From IMG/VR virus record IMGVR_UViG_2939521961_000011: a stretch of 64,000 bases of DNA. One strand, 5' to 3'. Below are positions 1,179 to 46,140 of the stretch, in pieces (position 1 is the first letter of the stretch; each line of letters begins with the position of its first letter). Made by a program: the position numbers and the translations under genes. The DNA is from a virus. Its lineage: Duplodnaviria; Heunggongvirae; Uroviricota; Caudoviricetes. Below the pieces are notes generated by a model. The model searched no databases. It was given only the letters and a program-made list of their open reading frames with translations, and was not told where the DNA came from.

Positions 1179-2228
1179 TTACGCCAGTACGCCAATTGCC
1201 AGCGCACGATCGATAAAACGAAATATCAGCTCCAGCTGAGAGCCATACTTCTCTTCAAATGCCACGGTATCCGCATGAAGCTCGTTGTGATGCTCCCGAC
1301 ACAGCGGTAGCGTGAAAATATCGTGAGATTTTGTCCCCATTCCGCCCTGACCATGACCAATCAGGTGATGGGGATCGTCGGCTGGCTTACCACAACACGC
1401 ACACGGCTGTGTCTTTACCCAGCGTGTGTATTTCTCATTTACCCAGCGGCGACGTTTAGGTCGTTTCATGAAGGATTCCGGAGACTCCGGATCAACGGCA
1501 ATGCTGACCACCGTCTTTTCCTGTGGTGGGTTCTGTTGCTGGTGGGTGTGAGACGGTAGCGCAATATTTTTTGTGCGCTGCTTCAGTATGCTGGTGGCGG
1601 TCTGTTCTCCCGGTATGATGTCGCTTTCACGGTATACGGAGCGGATTTTTTCCGCACGCAACCCCAGCGAACGACGTAATACCGCTTCCGGTAGCGCGTC
1701 CGCCACCTGATTGCGGACCGCCCACCAGGATAATTCAGCCAGCGATAATTCCCGTTCCTGTATGCCATTCATTGCGTGGCGGATGACGTCAATCATCCAT
1801 GCTGACAGGTTTTGTTGAGCAAGTTGCTCGAGTGATTCTGATGTCTGGTCGCGCAGCTGGTTGTCACAGTGCCAGCACAACACCATCGCGCCGGTACCAT
1901 AACGGTGAATGACTGTTTCGCTGTGATGATAATCGCCGTGTGGCCACTGGCAGGATTTCACGTGACGTAATAACCAGTCAGACAGTGCACCTGCACCACC
2001 TGCTGCACGAATAACCCGCTCATCGCTGAAAAATGGCAGTAATGTTTTATCCTCTGCCAGCGGCTGGCGAACGGCAGGAACGACTCCGGACGGCAGACCG
2101 CGCATGTTTTTCGGTTCCGGCTCCACCAATATTCTGCCGTTATGGAATACTGACATTGATTCACGGCCTGGCTTAACGATAACCAGACCGAGTTCCGGTA
2201 CCAGAACAGGTCGAAGTAATACCCGCAC
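1179..2228 (-). CDS. DUF968-family protein with C-terminal HNH-like motif (YdfU-like)
   Basis: 349 aa; C-terminal CACCGKP..HHL..LCREHHNELH motif; paralog at 47946..49049; standard position next to Q. GTG start 1 nt after the upstream stop. Confidence 0.7.
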   Translation of the reverse strand: MRVLLRPVLVPELGLVIVKPGRESMSVFHNGRILVEPEPKNMRGLPSGVVPAVRQPLAEDKTLLPFFSDERVIRAAGGAGALSDWLLRHVKSCQWPHGDYHHSETVIHRYGTGAMVLCWHCDNQLRDQTSESLEQLAQQNLSAWMIDVIRHAMNGIQERELSLAELSWWAVRNQVADALPEAVLRRSLGLRAEKIRSVYRESDIIPGEQTATSILKQRTKNIALPSHTHQQQNPPQEKTVVSIAVDPESPESFMKRPKRRRWVNEKYTRWVKTQPCACCGKPADDPHHLIGHGQGGMGTKSHDIFTLPLCREHHNELHADTVAFEEKYGSQLELIFRFIDRALAIGVLA

Positions 2229-2229
2229 G

Positions 2230-2517
2230 TTACCTCCAGATGCGCTGCTGGAATGTGCGGGACGGACGCGGTGGGCGTTCGGAATAAGGGAGCCTGGCGG
2301 AGATTATCCAGTGACGACGATCGAAGCTGAGATCTTTCTGAAACTCGTAACCACGCCTGCGGTAACACTGGATCAGCCATTCGGCCTGTTCTTCAGTGCA
2401 TAGGGGATGCTGGAACCAGTCGGTTTTAAATACGTGCGAACACCGTCCTTGCCTACTGGCAAGGGCGGCAGAATTGTGCAATCTGCTATCGTGCGCCATC
2501 GGGATCTCCGGTGGCAC
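2230..2517 (-). CDS. Small Rem-like prophage protein, function unknown
   Basis: 95-aa ORF coupled to the DUF968 gene; paralog at 48997..49269 in the same position. Confidence 0.45.
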   Translation of the reverse strand: MPPEIPMAHDSRLHNSAALASRQGRCSHVFKTDWFQHPLCTEEQAEWLIQCYRRRGYEFQKDLSFDRRHWIISARLPYSERPPRPSRTFQQRIWR

Positions 2518-5362: not shown

Positions 5363-6124
5363 TCACCGCTGCTGTTCTCTGGTGGCGGTAATATCCCGGA
5401 GAATATCCCGGCACTTGTTCAGCTCCCGCAGCGCGGCGCAGACTCGCTCCCACTTCTGAACCTGACCTTTTGCCCGGCGCAGCTCGCGGTTAGCCACATG
5501 CAGCGATGGTAAAATCAGCCCATCCGGATGCTTTCTGGTGAACGACGGCTGTGACTGCACTGTGACCGCCACACTTTCCGTTTTTATTTCTTCCTGTGTT
5601 TCCGCTTCCCGGACTGGTAACGCAACACATGCTGGCTGAGGAAAGGCTTTACCATCGGTTTCCGCTACGGATGCAGCTTCCGGCTCTGCCGGTAAATCAG
5701 CGCCCGGTATGCAGTAACGAAATTTACCGTTCTGATTTACGCGTGCCAGGCGCCCCGTTGCTGTTACGACCGCCAACGTGGAAGCAACCTTGCGAATGCT
5801 AACACCGAACTTATCCGCCAGTTCCTCACACGTTTTAGCCCCATCCTGACAGATAAACTCAATCATCATGTCCGCGGTAACTTTTTGTTCGACCTCCCCG
5901 GTCAGCACATCCGGTACTTCAGACTGTGCTGGCTGTTCTTCGGTTACCCCGGATTCACCTTCACCAGCCAGAAACCAGGTGTGACCCGTTTTATCAACAA
6001 CGCCATTTTTTTTGAGTTCCCACAGTTCGTTGAGAACTTCTTCACGGCTGATATCAAGCCGCGCCGCCAGTTCAACAGAATTGGCTTTACCCATCGTTTT
6101 CAGTGCATGCAATACGGTTTCCAT
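5363..6124 (-). CDS. DUF1627-like phage protein with N-terminal winged-helix
   Basis: 253 aa, acidic linker, conserved C-terminus; paralog at 52048..52809; lies directly downstream of the DnaC-like gene. Confidence 0.65.
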
Positions 6125-6153
6125 TAAAACTTCCTCCGGATAAAAATTACTTC

Positions 6154-6894
6154 TCAGTTCCTGTGCTGGCTGACGTTCGGACGCCAGCTCTCCCAGTTAA
6201 ACGTCACCCAGCGACCACCGTTCATGGACATGCGGTCCATCACCCGCTCGCCGAGAAGTGTATTCATCGCTGCATGGTTAAGATTTGTCAGCATCCCCAC
6301 ACTGAGTAACGATGCCGTTCTGCGGTCAACAATCTGATTCAGCGTGACCTGCTCATTACGCGTATCCCGTTGCATGCCAATTTCATCCAGTACCAGCAGG
6401 TCAACGCCACACAATCCCTGCAAAAATTTTTCGCCCGAGTTTTTGTTGTCGTAGCTGCCATGTAACGCCAGCATCACATCCGCCACTGTTATCACAATCA
6501 CACTGCGACCTTTCGCCAGAAGGTGGTTGCCAATAGCCGCCGCCAGGTGGTTTTTTCCTGTGCCAGGCCTGCCACTGAAAACAAAATTCGTACAGCCGCC
6601 TTCCAGCTCTGCCGCAATGGATTTCGCCTGACTCAGGGCATGGCGCTGACCATCGTTCTGCACCCGGTAGTTACCGAACGTACACTTCCGGTGAAGCGGC
6701 TGGATACCGGAGCGGTTAATGATTTTTTCAACCCGCGTCTGATGATTCAGACGATTAACCTCCTCGCTTCGCTTACGCCCTTCAGCAAGCTGCCATTCCC
6801 GCCACTCCGTCACCGTACGGTACGGAGGGATTGCATCCTGCGGCACAAATCTGCTGACTCTTGCCAGAACACCACCTGACGTAATGTTTTTCAT
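6154..6894 (-). CDS. Replication protein, DnaC-like helicase loader (IstB-type AAA+ ATPase)
   Basis: Walker [12 protein letters not shown] and Walker B LLVLDEIG; follows the O-like gene. Confidence 0.85.
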
Positions 6895-40426: not shown

Positions 40427-40894
40427 TCACGGTATACACTGGGTACGGATATATTCCTGTGCTCCTTCCAGTTGCTTCTGCATTGCCATCAGCCGTTCTC
40501 TGAGGATGAAATAATCCCGTTCAGCGGCTTCTGCCAGTCGGGGACCGGTTGCATTATCCACGCCGGAGGTGATGGGGGCTTTACGCAAGGAGCCTGGACA
40601 GTTGGCGTTGATGCGCAGGCGCTTACGACCAGCGGCAACATCAGCACGCAGAGTTTCATTTTCAGCTCTCGCATCGGCTAATTCCCTCGAGTATCTGGCA
40701 TCAAGTGCAGCGACATCACGCTGGCGTATCTGCATATCAGTAATTGTCGCGTTCGCCAGCTCCAGCTCACTGGCTTTTTTATCGCGCTGCTCTTTGTAGA
40801 TGATGGCGTGATCACGGTAATGATTCAGCCCCAGACTAAGCGCACCACAGGCCACCAGCAGGACAATGATAACCACGCACAGAACACGGTTCAT
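40427..40894 (-). CDS. Rz: Spanin inner-membrane subunit Rz
   Basis: N-terminal TM helix then coiled coil; contains an embedded Rz1 ORF in the +1 frame. Confidence 0.85.
   Translation of the reverse strand: MNRVLCVVIIVLLVACGALSLGLNHYRDHAIIYKEQRDKKASELELANATITDMQIRQRDVAALDARYSRELADARAENETLRADVAAGRKRLRINANCPGSLRKAPITSGVDNATGPRLAEAAERDYFILRERLMAMQKQLEGAQEYIRTQCIP
40489..40674 (-). CDS. Rz1: Spanin outer-membrane lipoprotein Rz1 (embedded in Rz)
   Basis: 61 aa with lipobox VVSAC and proline-rich CVKPPSPPAWIMQPVPDWQKPLNGIIS, as in lambda Rz1. Confidence 0.8.
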   Translation of the reverse strand: MRELKMKLCVLMLPLVVSACASTPTVQAPCVKPPSPPAWIMQPVPDWQKPLNGIISSSENG

Positions 40895-41225
40895 ATCACC
40901 ACCAACGGATTGCCCAGACCAGAACAGCAATGGCCACAATACGAATGGCAAAAGCTGCCGCTCTTGTTAAATCCAGACTGGCGTCTCCACTTCAATGCCT
41001 TTCATAATGGACAACCTCAGAAAGAATCTTTTATACTTCCTCACAGGGAAAGTACCTCCCTACCCATAATTTCTCCCTTGCCTTACTCAAGGTCAGAAAA
41101 CACAAAACCCCGCTTGCTGCCAACAAACGGGTTTTTTACTTTTATTCACTTAGGTTTTACCAGTTTTCAGGATTTCGTGTTATCCACCCGCGTTGGCCAA
41201 CGTCATTTTTCAGGAAAATATTCTG

Positions 41226-41759
41226 CTATCTGTCGATGTCCCAGCACGCCAGCGCGCTCTCCTGGTCACGCCGTGAGACCTGACCGTAGCAATTATTTGA
41301 ACGGATACGGCAGTCTCTGCCACCGTCCTTAATCCACCAGCGAATCGCCTCACAGGCACCTTTTCGATCGCCTGCATTAATTCGTTTATAAAACGTCGAC
41401 GGGAAGCACTTACCGGGGCCAATGTTGTACGGACAGAATGACGCGATCCCCGCTTTCTGGGGTTCGGTCAGCGGCACCCGGATGTTTTTCTCCACCCATG
41501 CCAGCGCCTTATCACGTTCAATAGCGTTAACCTGGTCGCATTTTTCCTTCGTCAGTTTCATGCCAGGAATAACAGGCTTACCATCCACCCGGGTGGCTCC
41601 ACGGCAGATGGTCCAGATACCCGCACCATCACGGTATGCCGTGGTGTGGTTACCTTCCTTTTCATCCAGAAACTGGTCGAGGATTTCAGGCGCAGACGCC
41701 CCTGCACCAATCAGCGCCAGAACGGCAGCCGACAGGCCGTATTTGATTTTTGCGTTCAT
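41226..41759 (-). CDS. R: SAR endolysin (T4-lysozyme-like, GH24)
   Basis: N-terminal signal-arrest-release helix YGLSAAVLALIGAGASA, then E...D...T catalytic region EGNHTTAYRDGAGIWT. Confidence 0.85.
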   Translation of the reverse strand: MNAKIKYGLSAAVLALIGAGASAPEILDQFLDEKEGNHTTAYRDGAGIWTICRGATRVDGKPVIPGMKLTKEKCDQVNAIERDKALAWVEKNIRVPLTEPQKAGIASFCPYNIGPGKCFPSTFYKRINAGDRKGACEAIRWWIKDGGRDCRIRSNNCYGQVSRRDQESALACWDIDR

Positions 41760-41889
41760 GGATATTTATCAGGATTTATCGGTTCCGAATCCCTGGATAT
41801 GTTAAGCCTTCACCCCACCAGTGGTGGGCACTGGCGGGTTCTTAATTTCCCCGGATGATCGTGGATTACATTCCACCAGGAGATTACTT

Positions 41890-42522
41890 ATGCTTATCTA
41901 TCCAGCGGCAGACCTCCGTTTACAGGGACGCAGAGCACAACCATGGGATAAAACAACCACTCATAAATATCGTCCCGGTCAATATTATGACTTTCGTAAA
42001 CACCCGGAACTGATCGAGACACACCTTGAGGATTTTGTTGAATATTCAGACAGACAAGCGATTCAGACCTTTTTTTCTTTTGTTAAGTGGATCAACAGCA
42101 ATTCATCTGCATTCGAGAGCACGGACTGCATGTTTTCAGGAACACCAAAGGTTGATGAATACGCCCCGGTATTTGGTTGCACCCATGCGTCATCTGGCCG
42201 CTTCGAATTTTTGTTTCGCGATACGAAAATAAACCAAAATGAGCGAGCTGTCGGATGGGTACTTAACAAACTATCGCTCTACCTTCAGAAAGAACGGCCC
42301 GATTTTTGTAAAGGAACCTTTGGCATCGTTCCCCTCATGACGGAATATACCGACTCCGGCGGTAACGAGTTCACCGGTTATCGTATTTGTGTCTATTTCG
42401 ATGCTTACGGGAATGGAACAGAGGATACCTGGACTTCTCTCAACATCATGTTTGATGGCCTCATGAAAGCCACCAAAAGAATGAGCAATGAAACAATCAC
42501 TGGCGAGATGCGTCCCCTTTAA
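41890..42522 (+). CDS. Hypothetical protein inside the lysis-cassette insertion, antisense to the lysis operon
   Basis: 210 aa from an ATG with AGGAGA RBS; its 3' 252 nt overlap the convergent ORF 42271..43062 in the same codon register. Confidence 0.45.
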   Translation: MLIYPAADLRLQGRRAQPWDKTTTHKYRPGQYYDFRKHPELIETHLEDFVEYSDRQAIQTFFSFVKWINSNSSAFESTDCMFSGTPKVDEYAPVFGCTHASSGRFEFLFRDTKINQNERAVGWVLNKLSLYLQKERPDFCKGTFGIVPLMTEYTDSGGNEFTGYRICVYFDAYGNGTEDTWTSLNIMFDGLMKATKRMSNETITGEMRPL

Positions 42523-43062
42523 AAAATTATCCAGAATCTCACTATTTGCAGAGCGCTCTCTGTTTTTTTGAATACGGAAACACTCTGCGAGATTTCTGCT
42601 CATCACTTTCCGGCAATAATCGTAAAACGCCGCGAACTGCTCATCACGGCGTTTTTTTTCACCTTCGGAAGGGATCTGCACCGACAGTTTTTTATTCAGT
42701 TCAACGACGCTGTTCTCCAGTTTTTCAATGCGTGATTCGATATCATCTTTTTCTGACTGTATCGTGTTATATGCATTGTTAATTTGTATGGTATACCGCT
42801 CTTCTGAACAGAGGCGCTTTTCCGGCAACGGTTCGTTCCCTTCACATAACCCGGCAGCAATATCCATGAAAAACTGCTTCGCCTTCTTTTTCGCCTCAGC
42901 TTCGTAAAACTCCAGCGGGGCACCTTCAACACGATCAAGATCAATCACCACATTTGGCAACAACAGTGACGTATACCCACCAGTTTCCAGCGCCACAGTA
43001 ACAGTAATCTTATCCGGGTAAATATTTATCCCTTTAACAACCAGTTCGTATTGTTTATTCAT
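42271..43062 (-). CDS. Hypothetical protein directly downstream of the holin, central coiled coil
   Basis: 263 aa; ATG 3 nt after the holin stop with GGGGAGAG RBS; 3' part overlaps the convergent plus-strand ORF. Confidence 0.45.
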   Translation of the reverse strand: MNKQYELVVKGINIYPDKITVTVALETGGYTSLLLPNVVIDLDRVEGAPLEFYEAEAKKKAKQFFMDIAAGLCEGNEPLPEKRLCSEERYTIQINNAYNTIQSEKDDIESRIEKLENSVVELNKKLSVQIPSEGEKKRRDEQFAAFYDYCRKVMSRNLAECFRIQKNRERSANSEILDNFLKGTHLASDCFIAHSFGGFHEAIKHDVERSPGILCSIPVSIEIDTNTITGELVTAGVGIFRHEGNDAKGSFTKIGPFFLKVER

Positions 43063-43065
43063 CGT

Positions 43066-43450: not shown

Positions 43451-43718
43451 TTGACAACATCCGTCACTGTCTGTCAGAAAATGTACTGCCATATAGAAGC
43501 AACATGTGAAGTACATCTATCCTTTTGAGCCAGCACCTCTCCACCGAAAGTCAGTGCTGGCTGTTTTTTTCCTTAATAAGGCATCTGTAACTGAAACAAT
43601 CCGCATATTGATAATATATTGACAGGCATCATTGCTGTCTGTGAAAAATAAGTCTCTACAAACATATAAGGCCTTTTAGCCAGCGTCTTCTTTTTCAGGT
43701 CAGTCGCTGGCTTTTTTT
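43451..43718 (+). repeat. Two tandem paralogous promoter-like/terminator units (candidate small RNA genes)
   Basis: Units at about 43451..43570 and 43619..43718 each begin TTGACA, share a CTGTCTGT box and end in a gccagc...gctggc hairpin plus T7. Confidence 0.3.
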
Positions 43719-43719
43719 A

Positions 43720-45570
43720 TTATGCTGCCGGTGCATTTATCTCCAGCATCAGACTTTCTATCTCAACGCCATACGCTGCATTTTTTGTAACATCCGTCAG
43801 CGTCAGCGCATTCAGTCCCAGTGTCAGACTGTCTTTTATAACCTGGAATGCCGGGCCAGCCACTCCATTCAGTTTCGGAGTAACCGTGGCACTGCCGGCG
43901 GTGAACACCAGCTCCAGCGTCTGCCAGTCGTTACCGTAATCGCCGAACTCCCCCAGCTTCGTGTTTCCGGCTTTCCTGTGATGCATCAGATTCACTCTGC
44001 CGTCAGTGGTCTGAGTGAAGTACGACATCAGGAACGGATTACCGGTACCCGTCATCGCCACACCATCAGGAACGGGAGCATCTGTATACAGATAAATCCC
44101 CAGCCCGAACTGATTGTTGGTCAGTGCGCCTGACAGGCGGAACTTACAGGTCAGTCTGCCGCCCTGTGTCAGCAGGGTAATTGCGTCATCCACCGGATGC
44201 GTCAGGGACCAGGTTTTATTGCTCTGCTTGGTGATCTTAAATACACCATCTGACAACTGAATTCCGCCATCCTTAATGCTCCAGCCCTGCGCAGCAGCCT
44301 CTCCGGCTGCCGGCAGCAGGGAGATTGTGCGAACGGACGTATCTGCAGACGGACCCGATGGCGTGTTGCCGCCGGGCGAGGGTTTGATTTCCGGTGCCTT
44401 ACCACTGATGAAGGCGGAGGTGCGCCCGGCTGCGTTCAGAATAGCGGTTGCCAGACGATCCGGAATAATGCTCCTGCGCGCCCATGAACTGAAATGTGTC
44501 GGGCGGTTTGATGATACCTGGTTTCCATTCGTTCTCGATGCCGCACCGTAATATCCTGATGCCGGAATATCCGGATCTTCTGCCGGCGCGTTAGTGGCGG
44601 TATTGACACCGTTACCGTCTGTCATGAAGGGCACAAAATAAACGCCCTCACTCTCCCTGTTTTTATACCCGCCGTACACGGTGTCGTACTGGGTAGCGTA
44701 TGTATTTTTCCAGTAATACGTCGTGTCACCACAAATCCACGGCACATCTGCAGCACTGCCACCATGGCACTGCGCGTTAAACACGGAGAGGTCAGCACGA
44801 AACTGTGTCAGCATGGCTGTAAACAGCGCAGGTTGCTGTGCGTGGGTGGCGGCGCTCATGTCAAACTCTCCCTGCATCCAGCACACCGCCAGCAACACAT
44901 TTTTCGGGTTCTTCTGTAATGCAGCTTTAGTGCGCGCAATCAGGTCCTGATATAACGGTTTACCCACACCCCAGCGTGCCGAATCCTGGCTGGCCCCCGT
45001 GTCCGCACTGAATGTCCCCTCCGCGCCCTGGGTGAATGCCGAACCACCACGACAGCATGGTACCAGCAGGATCCCCGCGTTATTCGGGATATACGGGAGC
45101 AGTTTTTTGGCAATATGTAACCCCTGGCCGACACAGCCGTACTGCCCTTTGCTCAGGTCTGCCTTCGGATGATTCAGCGTACTCATATCCTGCACATCAT
45201 GCAGGCAGTGGTCGGCCGGAATAATATCGTTATATCTGCAGGCAGCCCCACCCGGCGTCACTGTACTGCGGCGCGCCAGCTGTTTAATGCGCGGATCCGG
45301 AGCATCGTATGAATCCGGCAGCGGAAGCCCTTCACCGTAAGCCATGGCATTGGACTGCCCGGCCAGTACGATGACGTAGTACCACTCCGGCTCAGTTGCA
45401 CCACTGACCACCACATCACCTTCTGCTGTAATCGCCTGCATCAGGGTATAAGGGGTTATGGCCACCGGACTCCCAAACGGCTGCCAGCCCTCTTTCAGTT
45501 TGTGTGTCAGCTTTTCCGCAAGGTCTGACGGCGACGCCGCCCTGACAACATCATAATGTTTAAATGTCAT
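43720..45570 (-). CDS. Prophage sialate O-acetylesterase-like protein (NanS-p-like)
   Basis: 616 aa with DUF1737-like N-terminus and SGNH/SASA-type GQSN motif (VIVLAGQSNAMAYGEG); Q-downstream position as in Stx-type phages. Confidence 0.7.
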   Translation of the reverse strand: MTFKHYDVVRAASPSDLAEKLTHKLKEGWQPFGSPVAITPYTLMQAITAEGDVVVSGATEPEWYYVIVLAGQSNAMAYGEGLPLPDSYDAPDPRIKQLARRSTVTPGGAACRYNDIIPADHCLHDVQDMSTLNHPKADLSKGQYGCVGQGLHIAKKLLPYIPNNAGILLVPCCRGGSAFTQGAEGTFSADTGASQDSARWGVGKPLYQDLIARTKAALQKNPKNVLLAVCWMQGEFDMSAATHAQQPALFTAMLTQFRADLSVFNAQCHGGSAADVPWICGDTTYYWKNTYATQYDTVYGGYKNRESEGVYFVPFMTDGNGVNTATNAPAEDPDIPASGYYGAASRTNGNQVSSNRPTHFSSWARRSIIPDRLATAILNAAGRTSAFISGKAPEIKPSPGGNTPSGPSADTSVRTISLLPAAGEAAAQGWSIKDGGIQLSDGVFKITKQSNKTWSLTHPVDDAITLLTQGGRLTCKFRLSGALTNNQFGLGIYLYTDAPVPDGVAMTGTGNPFLMSYFTQTTDGRVNLMHHRKAGNTKLGEFGDYGNDWQTLELVFTAGSATVTPKLNGVAGPAFQVIKDSLTLGLNALTLTDVTKNAAYGVEIESLMLEINAPAA

Positions 45571-45784
45571 TATTCCTCCCGGCCGGGATAGTGTATTAAA
45601 TCAGATATGGAGTGGGCTGTAGTCCGGAAGCCTGAATGACACACGGGGACTACAGCCCAAGAAATGAAAAAAGGCCACGCAGTTGCGCAGCCTGATAAAC
45701 CCTGGTTAAAATCCACACGATAACAACACAACAATATCAGTATCTCATGCTATTGCCCGAACCCATTCGGGCATTTTTTACCCA

Positions 45785-45816
45785 TAAAAAAGCCCCTCCG
45801 GAGAGGGGCATGTTTG
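45785..45816. terminator. Bidirectional rho-independent terminator
   Basis: gcccctc cgga gaggggc hairpin flanked by an A-run and a T-rich stretch. Confidence 0.4.
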
Positions 45817-46140
45817 CATGCACATTCTTTTTCTTGCATGGTGCCGGGTGCCTCCCGGTGAATTCAGTATCAGCACCTGAATCCGCGATTATCACATATA
45901 CCTGGTTGCTGATTGCCCCTCCGCACAGGGGGATTCACCATGCAGTAGTATTTTTAATAAACAGTAAACAAAAAAATCAAGCATTATGCAGGCTGTTTCT
46001 TTTTATCACCGGCCACAGCAATACCACAATGCCGCAGACCAGCACCCCATCCGCCAGCACCGACATGATTCTGCTGGTGAAATCCACCATCACCACCAGA
46101 AACAGCAGGAGTGCAGCCACAGCCAGGCGCAGTTTTACCG

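Follow-up and report, generated by a model that had tools for sequence, protein, structure and literature searches.

A conserved opposite-strand gene and a truncated DUF1327/YdfR gene very likely share the holin-endolysin spacer of a Shiga-toxin-phage-related prophage

We analyzed a window of 64,000 nucleotides, i.e. the whole stretch of DNA taken from the IMG/VR virus record IMGVR_UViG_2939521961_000011 (Caudoviricetes), with a focus on the spacer between the holin gene S and the endolysin gene R. The lysis region of the window is 100% identical to a prophage of Escherichia coli O26:H11 str. 11368 and to many other Shiga toxin-producing E. coli (STEC) strains, and the window region shows 99.9% identity to five records of phages converting to Shiga toxin 1a (Stx1a). 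The S-R spacer spans 41760..43065 (1306 bp) and contains two open reading frames (ORFs) on opposite strands, a plus-strand ORF of 210 amino acids (aa) and a minus-strand ORF of 263 aa (Table 1), overlapping by 252 nt (42271..42522) in exact antisense codon register (frame offset 0). All coordinates, ORFs and ribosome-binding sites of the preliminary description of this DNA, as well as the 3-nt spacing between the holin gene and the minus-strand ATG and the extent of the overlap, were re-read as reported, and its statement that S and R are split relative to their usual adjacency is borne out by phage 434, in which S encodes the same type of holin and directly abuts R. Our data make it very likely that the spacer is composed of a truncated DUF1327/YdfR late gene and of an opposite-strand moron carrying a real 210-aa gene.

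Table 1. Features of the holin-endolysin spacer and of its surroundings (positions refer to the window; pS and pN, proportions of synonymous and nonsynonymous differences; PGAP, Prokaryotic Genome Annotation Pipeline; SAR, signal-arrest-release; sRNA, small RNA)
Feature	Position	Strand	Basis or remark
Plus-strand gene, 210 aa, 24.3 kDa, isoelectric point 5.8, soluble	41890..42522	+	Full-length homologues; sense-frame pS far above pN
Shine-Dalgarno sequence AGGAGA	41878..41883	+	6-nt spacer before the ATG
Minus-strand ORF, 263 aa	42271..43062	-	ATG 3 nt past the holin TAG, preceded by GGGGAGAG
Part of the minus-strand ORF read as genuine: DUF1327/YdfR domain (residues 1-96) and coiled-coil-like middle, to residue ~165	42566..43062	-	Pfam, PHROG, DNA homology
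Tail of the minus-strand ORF without homology, ~98 codons	42271..42565	-	Runs across the hairpin, then along the antisense strand of the plus-strand gene
Opposite-strand moron cassette, 800 bp	41766..42565	+	Replaces 397 bp (C-terminal domain) of the ancestral S-R gene
Candidate sigma-70 promoter TTTATC-17-TATGTT, weak	41775..41803	+	Inferred; best-scoring site in the 180 nt upstream of the plus-strand gene
Weak intrinsic-terminator-like site, 6-bp hairpin and T7 run	42548..42570	+	Terminator scan; after the stop codon of the plus-strand gene
Class II holin (pinholin type, S21/933W-like), 68 aa	43066..43272	-	PF04971 'P21 holin S', 112 bits; PHROG holin families; PGAP 'class II holin family protein'
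SAR-type endolysin (T4-lysozyme family), 177 aa	41226..41759	-	PF00959, 89 bits; phrog_7 endolysin
Rz (i-spanin)	40427..40894	-	PGAP 'lysis protein', 468 nt
Rz1 (o-spanin)	40489..40674	-	In another frame inside Rz; lipoprotein-type N-terminus MKLCVLMLPLVVSAC
R-Rz gap, decayed and variable	40895..41225		PGAP: frameshifted pseudogene at ~40896..41005
Terminator-like hairpin in the R-Rz gap	41131..41109	-	
Hairpin with T-run	43500..43575	+	-16.9 kcal/mol, z = -2.1
Hairpin with T-run	43660..43722	+	-16.5 kcal/mol, z = -4.0
Prophage anti-sRNA AgvB	45718..45779	+	Rfam, 96.5 bits (gathering score 56)
sRNA STnc100	45780..45969	-	Rfam, 147.8 bits; directly adjoins AgvB on the opposite strand

Searching 5.8 billion proteins revealed full-length homologues of the plus-strand protein with 210-219 aa and 53-65% sequence identity, and 16 further loci of the gene, with 50-56% identity, were found in IMG/VR. 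Five full-length homologues align without internal gaps, and AAGGA or AGGAG is present in the homologue loci at the position of the Shine-Dalgarno sequence. According to the Nei-Gojobori method pS amounts to 0.7-0.85, i.e. synonymous change is saturated, and pN to 0.2-0.3 in the plus frame, and the two values are similar (0.3-0.5) in the codon-aligned antisense frame; this pattern of selection in the plus frame only holds inside as well as outside the 252-nt overlap. Since pN is low in the plus frame only, it is the plus frame that is selected across the overlap, and the tail of the minus-strand ORF is a shadow. The comparison shows that the 210-aa gene is under purifying selection. The earlier expectation that at most one of the two ORFs is real across the overlap therefore stands, and the proposed check for conservation with synonymous-biased substitutions singles out the plus-strand ORF.

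The length of the open antisense frame is not remarkable. In this register an antisense stop codon arises only opposite a sense TTA, CTA or TCA, of which the plus-strand gene has 6 in 211 codons, so by our own calculation an open antisense stretch of 83 codons is expected about 9% of the time. Among the five loci, four keep the antisense frame open over 83-88 codons and one, a Salmonella locus, closes it after 17 codons.

The minus-strand ORF belongs to a known family. Its residues 1-96 match PF07041 (DUF1327) in Pfam with 116.3 bits at a cut-off of 25, phrog_2091 covers residues 1-168, and beyond residue ~168 neither Pfam nor PHROG yields a family match. The preliminary description had placed neither of the two proteins in a known family, which is correct for the plus-strand protein (none in Pfam, NCBIfam, PHROG, PADLOC or the Protein Data Bank (PDB)) and incorrect for the minus-strand protein. 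Homology at the DNA level with the S-R genes of O157, O103 and PhiR12 ends at 42566 or 42613. Of 5426 complete E. coli genomes, 1309 contain DNA that matches the part encoding the N-terminal domain with 80% identity or more, in up to 8 copies per genome, and these copies are annotated as DUF1327 or YdfR family protein. The gene resembles YdfR/DUF1327 (PF07041) genes in its N-terminal 96 residues and in its position directly after the holin gene on the late strand, as in many lambdoid prophages; a search of the literature on DUF1327 and ydfR gave nothing useful.

Longer relatives occupy the same position in other prophages, a 329-aa ORF in O103:H2 12009 and a 185-aa protein in O157:H7 TX 265-1. 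The two have '...RRDEQFAAFYDYCRKVMSRNLAECF' in common with the window protein, after which they diverge into a C-terminal domain of ~120 aa that stops ~40 nt before R. In the window this C-terminal domain is replaced past residue ~165, and the gene, unlike its full-length relatives, ends in ~98 unrelated codons. The annotations differ between sources: for the O26 reference PGAP lists the gene as a DUF1327 pseudogene with the remark 'missing C-terminus', and other submitters list a 263-aa protein. The sequence comparison argues that the minus-strand ORF is a truncated DUF1327/YdfR gene, its tail being a shadow and an accident rather than a conserved protein. As a side observation, the 329-aa ORF of O103:H2 12009 (1434..2423, minus strand, of that locus), consisting of the DUF1327 domain, the coiled coil and the C-terminal domain, is intact and fills the whole S-R spacer; the RefSeq annotation is restricted to a partial 'YdfR family protein' pseudogene, a call that may be wrong.

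An alternative is the reverse assignment, in which the full-length 263-aa minus-strand ORF is functional and the plus-strand ORF is its shadow. It could draw on the strong ribosome-binding site of the minus-strand ORF and its translational coupling to the holin gene, on the annotation of the 263-aa protein by several submitters, and on the plus-strand ORF being left unannotated by PGAP in most genomes. We attach next to no probability to it, given that plus-strand protein homologues with 50-65% identity over their full length occur in loci without any DUF1327 gene, that selection acts in the plus frame only, and that the homology of the minus-strand ORF ends at residue ~165-168. A shadow status of the plus-strand ORF was rejected on the grounds of its full-length homologues, the plus-frame selection and the loci in tail-gene slots; compared to the scenario envisaged earlier, with a known minus-strand protein and a plus-strand shadow frame, the roles are reversed, the tail of the minus-strand ORF being the shadow.

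Both ORFs might also be functional, i.e. the DUF1327 protein would be a chimera whose new C-terminus, read from the strand opposite to the moron gene, is useful, resulting in a true overlapping pair. The 263-aa form is intact on at least 999 contigs and also in the lineage with a frameshifted plus-strand gene, and the antisense frame is open over 83-88 codons in three other homologue loci. We regard such a pair as quite improbable, since an open frame is expected about 9% of the time and is closed in the Salmonella locus, with pS similar to pN in this frame, and since three phages converting to Shiga toxin 2a (Stx2a) carry the same tail on a protein without the DUF1327 domain, as passive read-through would give.

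Comparison with related phages defines the extent of the exchanged segment. Relative to O157:H7 TX 265-1 homology covers 41200-41765 and 42566-42703, placing the breakpoints at 41765/41766 and 42565/42566; since homology stops at 41765 and resumes at 42566, 800 bp of the window replace 397 bp of the ancestral gene. The three Stx2a phages carry the 210-aa cassette and lack the DUF1327 N-terminal domain. Escherichia phage PhiR12_1 differs from the window over the variable segment 41836-42612 and has a DUF1823 gene there instead. This DUF1823 cassette has the same slot and orientation as the window cassette, is preceded by an identical 70-bp upstream segment (window 41766-41835) and likewise reaches into the DUF1327 gene at its 3' end. 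It differs in its unrelated cargo of 87 aa, compared to 210 aa in the window, and in the DUF1327 gene keeping a short native end, resulting in a 170-aa protein. The 1.3 kb had been described as one insertion splitting the holin gene from the endolysin gene; this reading was rejected, as only 41766..42565 is a discrete cassette, replacing the 3' end of a resident DUF1327 gene in the late operon. The suggestion that the spacer contains a discrete cassette hence holds for 800 bp of it and not for the whole.

Morons in lambdoid phages, as defined by Hendrix and colleagues, include lambda bor and the Iss-like lipoprotein gene located next to Rz on the opposite strand in phage 434. The window cassette is similarly a small, probably autonomous unit between late genes, which is oriented against late transcription and lies near the lysis genes; otherwise homologous or near-identical phages (O157, PhiR12, phage 434) either have it or lack it, with sharp breakpoints. 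Differences to lambda bor and the Iss-like morons are that its product is a soluble cytoplasmic protein and not a lipoprotein and that promoter and terminator are weakly supported.

This supports a model according to which a resident DUF1327/YdfR gene of the late operon was present first, today being intact only to about residue 165, and an 800-bp opposite-strand moron cassette would then have taken the place of the C-terminal domain of this gene. The cassette would comprise an upstream element that is conserved and includes a weak promoter-like site, the strong ribosome-binding site, the gene of 210 codons and a weak hairpin of the terminator type. With the loss of the native stop codon, the DUF1327 frame would run on into the codon-aligned antisense frame of the plus-strand gene, giving the 263-aa ORF. 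The -10 hexamer of the candidate promoter lies inside the upstream element, which is conserved in six loci across different slots, and in two Salmonella loci the best promoter-like site is found at the same distance from the start codon as in the window. This arrangement suggests that the plus-strand gene is transcribed on its own, apart from the Q-dependent late transcription. Being independent of Q, the plus-strand gene would mainly be expressed in the lysogen, where the moron is probably active.

The genomic positions of the homologues show that the gene is mobile. In a P22-like prophage of Salmonella enterica the homologue lies between the antiterminator gene Q, accompanied there by the Kiwa genes KwaA/KwaB, and the holin gene; in 14 of the 16 diverged IMG/VR loci it is flanked by the tail genes I and J, and one homologue is located near sodC in a prophage remnant. 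In all prophage slots the gene is antiparallel to the late genes. The cassette is intact with at least 99% identity in 132 of the 5426 complete E. coli genomes. Decayed copies in E. coli carry a 1-nt deletion in the T-run at 42070 or an IS3 insertion, and an internally deleted copy with 82% identity is positioned upstream of a different lysis cassette. Collectively, these positions show a gene that moves between accessory slots of enterobacterial prophages. The T-run mentioned above is a T8 homopolymer within the plus-strand gene (42070..42077), in which the loss of one T results in a frameshift and a 113-aa product in a lineage represented by 21 deposited sequences; this variant may reflect genuine decay, phase variation or an error in sequencing the homopolymer. 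In the Salmonella enterica prophage the Kiwa genes (9618..11257 of that locus) are ~3 kb from the 219-aa homologue and on the same strand.

Distant members of the family occur in Nitrospira, Acidobacteria, Myxococcales, Psychromonas and others. A profile of the environmental subfamily detected 59 loci in genome contigs, and a profile built from the enterobacterial alignment found no match in these contigs. No neighbouring gene family recurs at a fixed position across phyla, and no conserved partner gene was found. A DUF1415 (PF07209) gene directly follows the family member on the same strand in a single acidobacterial lineage, accounting for 5 of 71 loci (L012/L013 at 5606..6172, L015 at 5633..6238, L017 and L018), and is absent from the other 66.

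The preliminary description had named lysis timing as one potential function. A lysis-accessory factor, i.e. a lysis-timing protein, antiholin or endolysin regulator, would be in line with the position of the plus-strand gene between S and R and with its homologue adjoining the holin gene in Salmonella. The gene is, however, antiparallel to the late operon, most of its diverged homologues lie between the tail genes I and J, distant homologues reside in non-phage chromosomes, the protein has neither a membrane segment nor a signal peptide, and the same slot of PhiR12 holds the unrelated DUF1823 gene. We rejected lysis timing as the function of the plus-strand protein and consider it highly unlikely because homologues are found in slots among tail genes and between Q and S as well as on chromosomes of Nitrospira, Acidobacteria and Myxococcales.

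The plus-strand protein is the member of a large family of uniform size. A profile search of 1.84 billion representative sequences yielded 251 clusters, nearly all with 200-215 aa. An alignment of 94 sequences shows eighteen nearly invariant positions, ten of which are polar (R15, E47, D48, N69, S73, E76, D79, R104, R110 and N115), which suggests that the protein may have an active site or a ligand-binding site. AlphaFold2 supplied with this 94-sequence alignment predicted a structure with a pLDDT (predicted local distance difference test) of 94.9 and a pTM (predicted template modeling score) of 0.91, in which an N-terminal extension precedes a four-stranded antiparallel sheet packed on three helices; a model calculated from a 5-sequence alignment had left the N-terminal 48 residues unmodelled, which the larger alignment fixed. 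The profile and structure-prediction searches proposed at the outset assigned the protein to no family: the AlphaFold model has no informative structural neighbour, sequence-profile searches of the PDB gave chance matches only, no meaningful family was found for the protein and the 94 family members in Pfam, NCBIfam, PHROGs and PADLOC, and no transmembrane or hydrophobic segment and no signal peptide were detected.

One lead was provided by TYW3/Taw3, a class of methyltransferases whose fold comprises RAGNYA and SHS2 domains with an N-terminal extension. The '(I/L)N-x10-C' spacing and a nearly invariant 'CSGR' of the plus-strand family recall the TYW3 signature, and hhalign aligns these elements with TYW3, with probabilities of 6% and 14% against a TYW3 profile derived from N-terminal fragments only. 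The signature of TYW3/Taw3 is a contiguous (S/T)xSSCxGR (PMC5311493), and TYW3 chains in the PDB carry TTSSCSGR. In the plus-strand family, by contrast, ES(N/T)DC and (C/S)SGR are ~20 residues apart instead of forming one contiguous motif, and the invariant His is lacking; PF02676 (TYW3) gave no match to the protein at E <= 10. We rejected membership in TYW3/Taw3 based on the split motif, the lacking PF02676 match and the low hhalign probabilities. That the protein is a very distant relative of these S-adenosylmethionine-dependent methyltransferases, modifying a nucleic acid or a small molecule, is doubtful.

The plus-strand gene would provide an accessory benefit to the host or the prophage. 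This agrees with the preliminary description insofar as the spacer was supposed to hold an undescribed accessory gene, which we find in the plus-strand ORF as an uncharacterized gene that is selected and mobile. As to the type of benefit, defence, exclusion or modification of the host in the lysogen would be the most plausible class of function, our guess being an enzyme-like or ligand-binding protein. Tentatively, the prophage might express it as a factor that by itself confers anti-phage defence or excludes superinfecting phages: the gene has moron architecture, antiparallel to the late genes, it occupies accessory slots of prophages, in one case ~3 kb from Kiwa, and it is patchily distributed with some copies inactivated. 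Set against this, PADLOC, Pfam and PHROG give no match for the protein or its family, the neighbourhoods show neither a conserved partner gene nor an excess of defence genes, and synteny is stable in Nitrospira. Nothing that we tested supports a defence role beyond the location of the gene. Going further, the 210-aa protein might found an enzyme-like family captured by enterobacterial prophages, including Stx1a and Stx2a phages, for a new form of single-gene phage exclusion or host modification in the lysogen, possibly with a TYW3-like activity, which we consider unlikely.

Several observations weigh against parts of our interpretation of the spacer. In E. coli the tail of the 263-aa ORF might nonetheless be translated, and selection on it is immeasurable in this species because all E. 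coli copies are nearly identical; by the same token these copies are too alike to reveal a selection that would favor a functional tail. Regarding autonomous transcription, no promoter upstream of the plus-strand gene reached the threshold of the consensus scan and the candidate TTTATC-17-TATGTT scores only ~7 bits; the terminator-like hairpin is weak (-7.1 kcal/mol, z = -0.86) and not exceptional, and it is not conserved in the homologue loci. Regarding a role in defence, the window protein has no match in PADLOC-DB v2, with three chance-level matches (E ~0.008) among the 94 members, and the distant members in Nitrospira, Acidobacteria and Myxococcales are found in ordinary chromosomal neighbourhoods with lineage-specific synteny, a context fitting a housekeeping-type role at least as well as defence.

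The genes surrounding the spacer constitute a lysis cassette in which a P21-family class II holin is combined with a putative SAR endolysin, as in phage-21-type cassettes; the N-terminus of the endolysin, MNAKIKYGLSAAVLALIGAGASAP, is Gly/Ala-rich, weakly hydrophobic and SAR-like. The holin family is common to the window and the phage 434/phage 21 cassettes, and phage 434 does not differ from the window upstream of S (100% identity); the difference is that in phage 434 nothing lies between S and R, compared to 1306 bp in the window. The further gap between R and Rz, given as a non-coding stretch of 330 bp in the preliminary description, does measure ~330 bp if the PGAP start of Rz (40894) is used; rather than being non-coding it is a decayed region. 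At the same position Stx1a phages have an antirepressor gene and a 147-nt ORF, and PhiR12 has two small ORFs.

Upstream of S two plus-strand hairpins followed by T-runs are located between an esterase gene and the holin gene, antiparallel to the late operon, each with a TTGACA hexamer ~80-100 nt upstream. Neither matches an Rfam family. The curated record of phage 434, being 100% identical in this region, labels them terminators only; they could be the ends of small plus-strand transcripts. The matches to AgvB and STnc100 are positioned upstream of the SASA-family esterase gene, and a weaker match to AsxR overlaps AgvB.

As a summary, the lysis cassette of Stx1a and Stx2a phages and of related STEC prophages contains a conserved gene that PGAP leaves unannotated in most genomes, and it contains a 263-aa ORF that is annotated as intact although its last third is read-through. 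The S-R slot behaves as a swap-in site, in which different cargos are placed behind a common 70-bp handle. This is not a new kind of system, as many prophage morons without assigned function exist. The plus-strand gene is a mobile and selected member of a wholly uncharacterized family and, as a single gene, lends itself to tests of lysogenic conversion or phage exclusion in Shiga-toxin phages.

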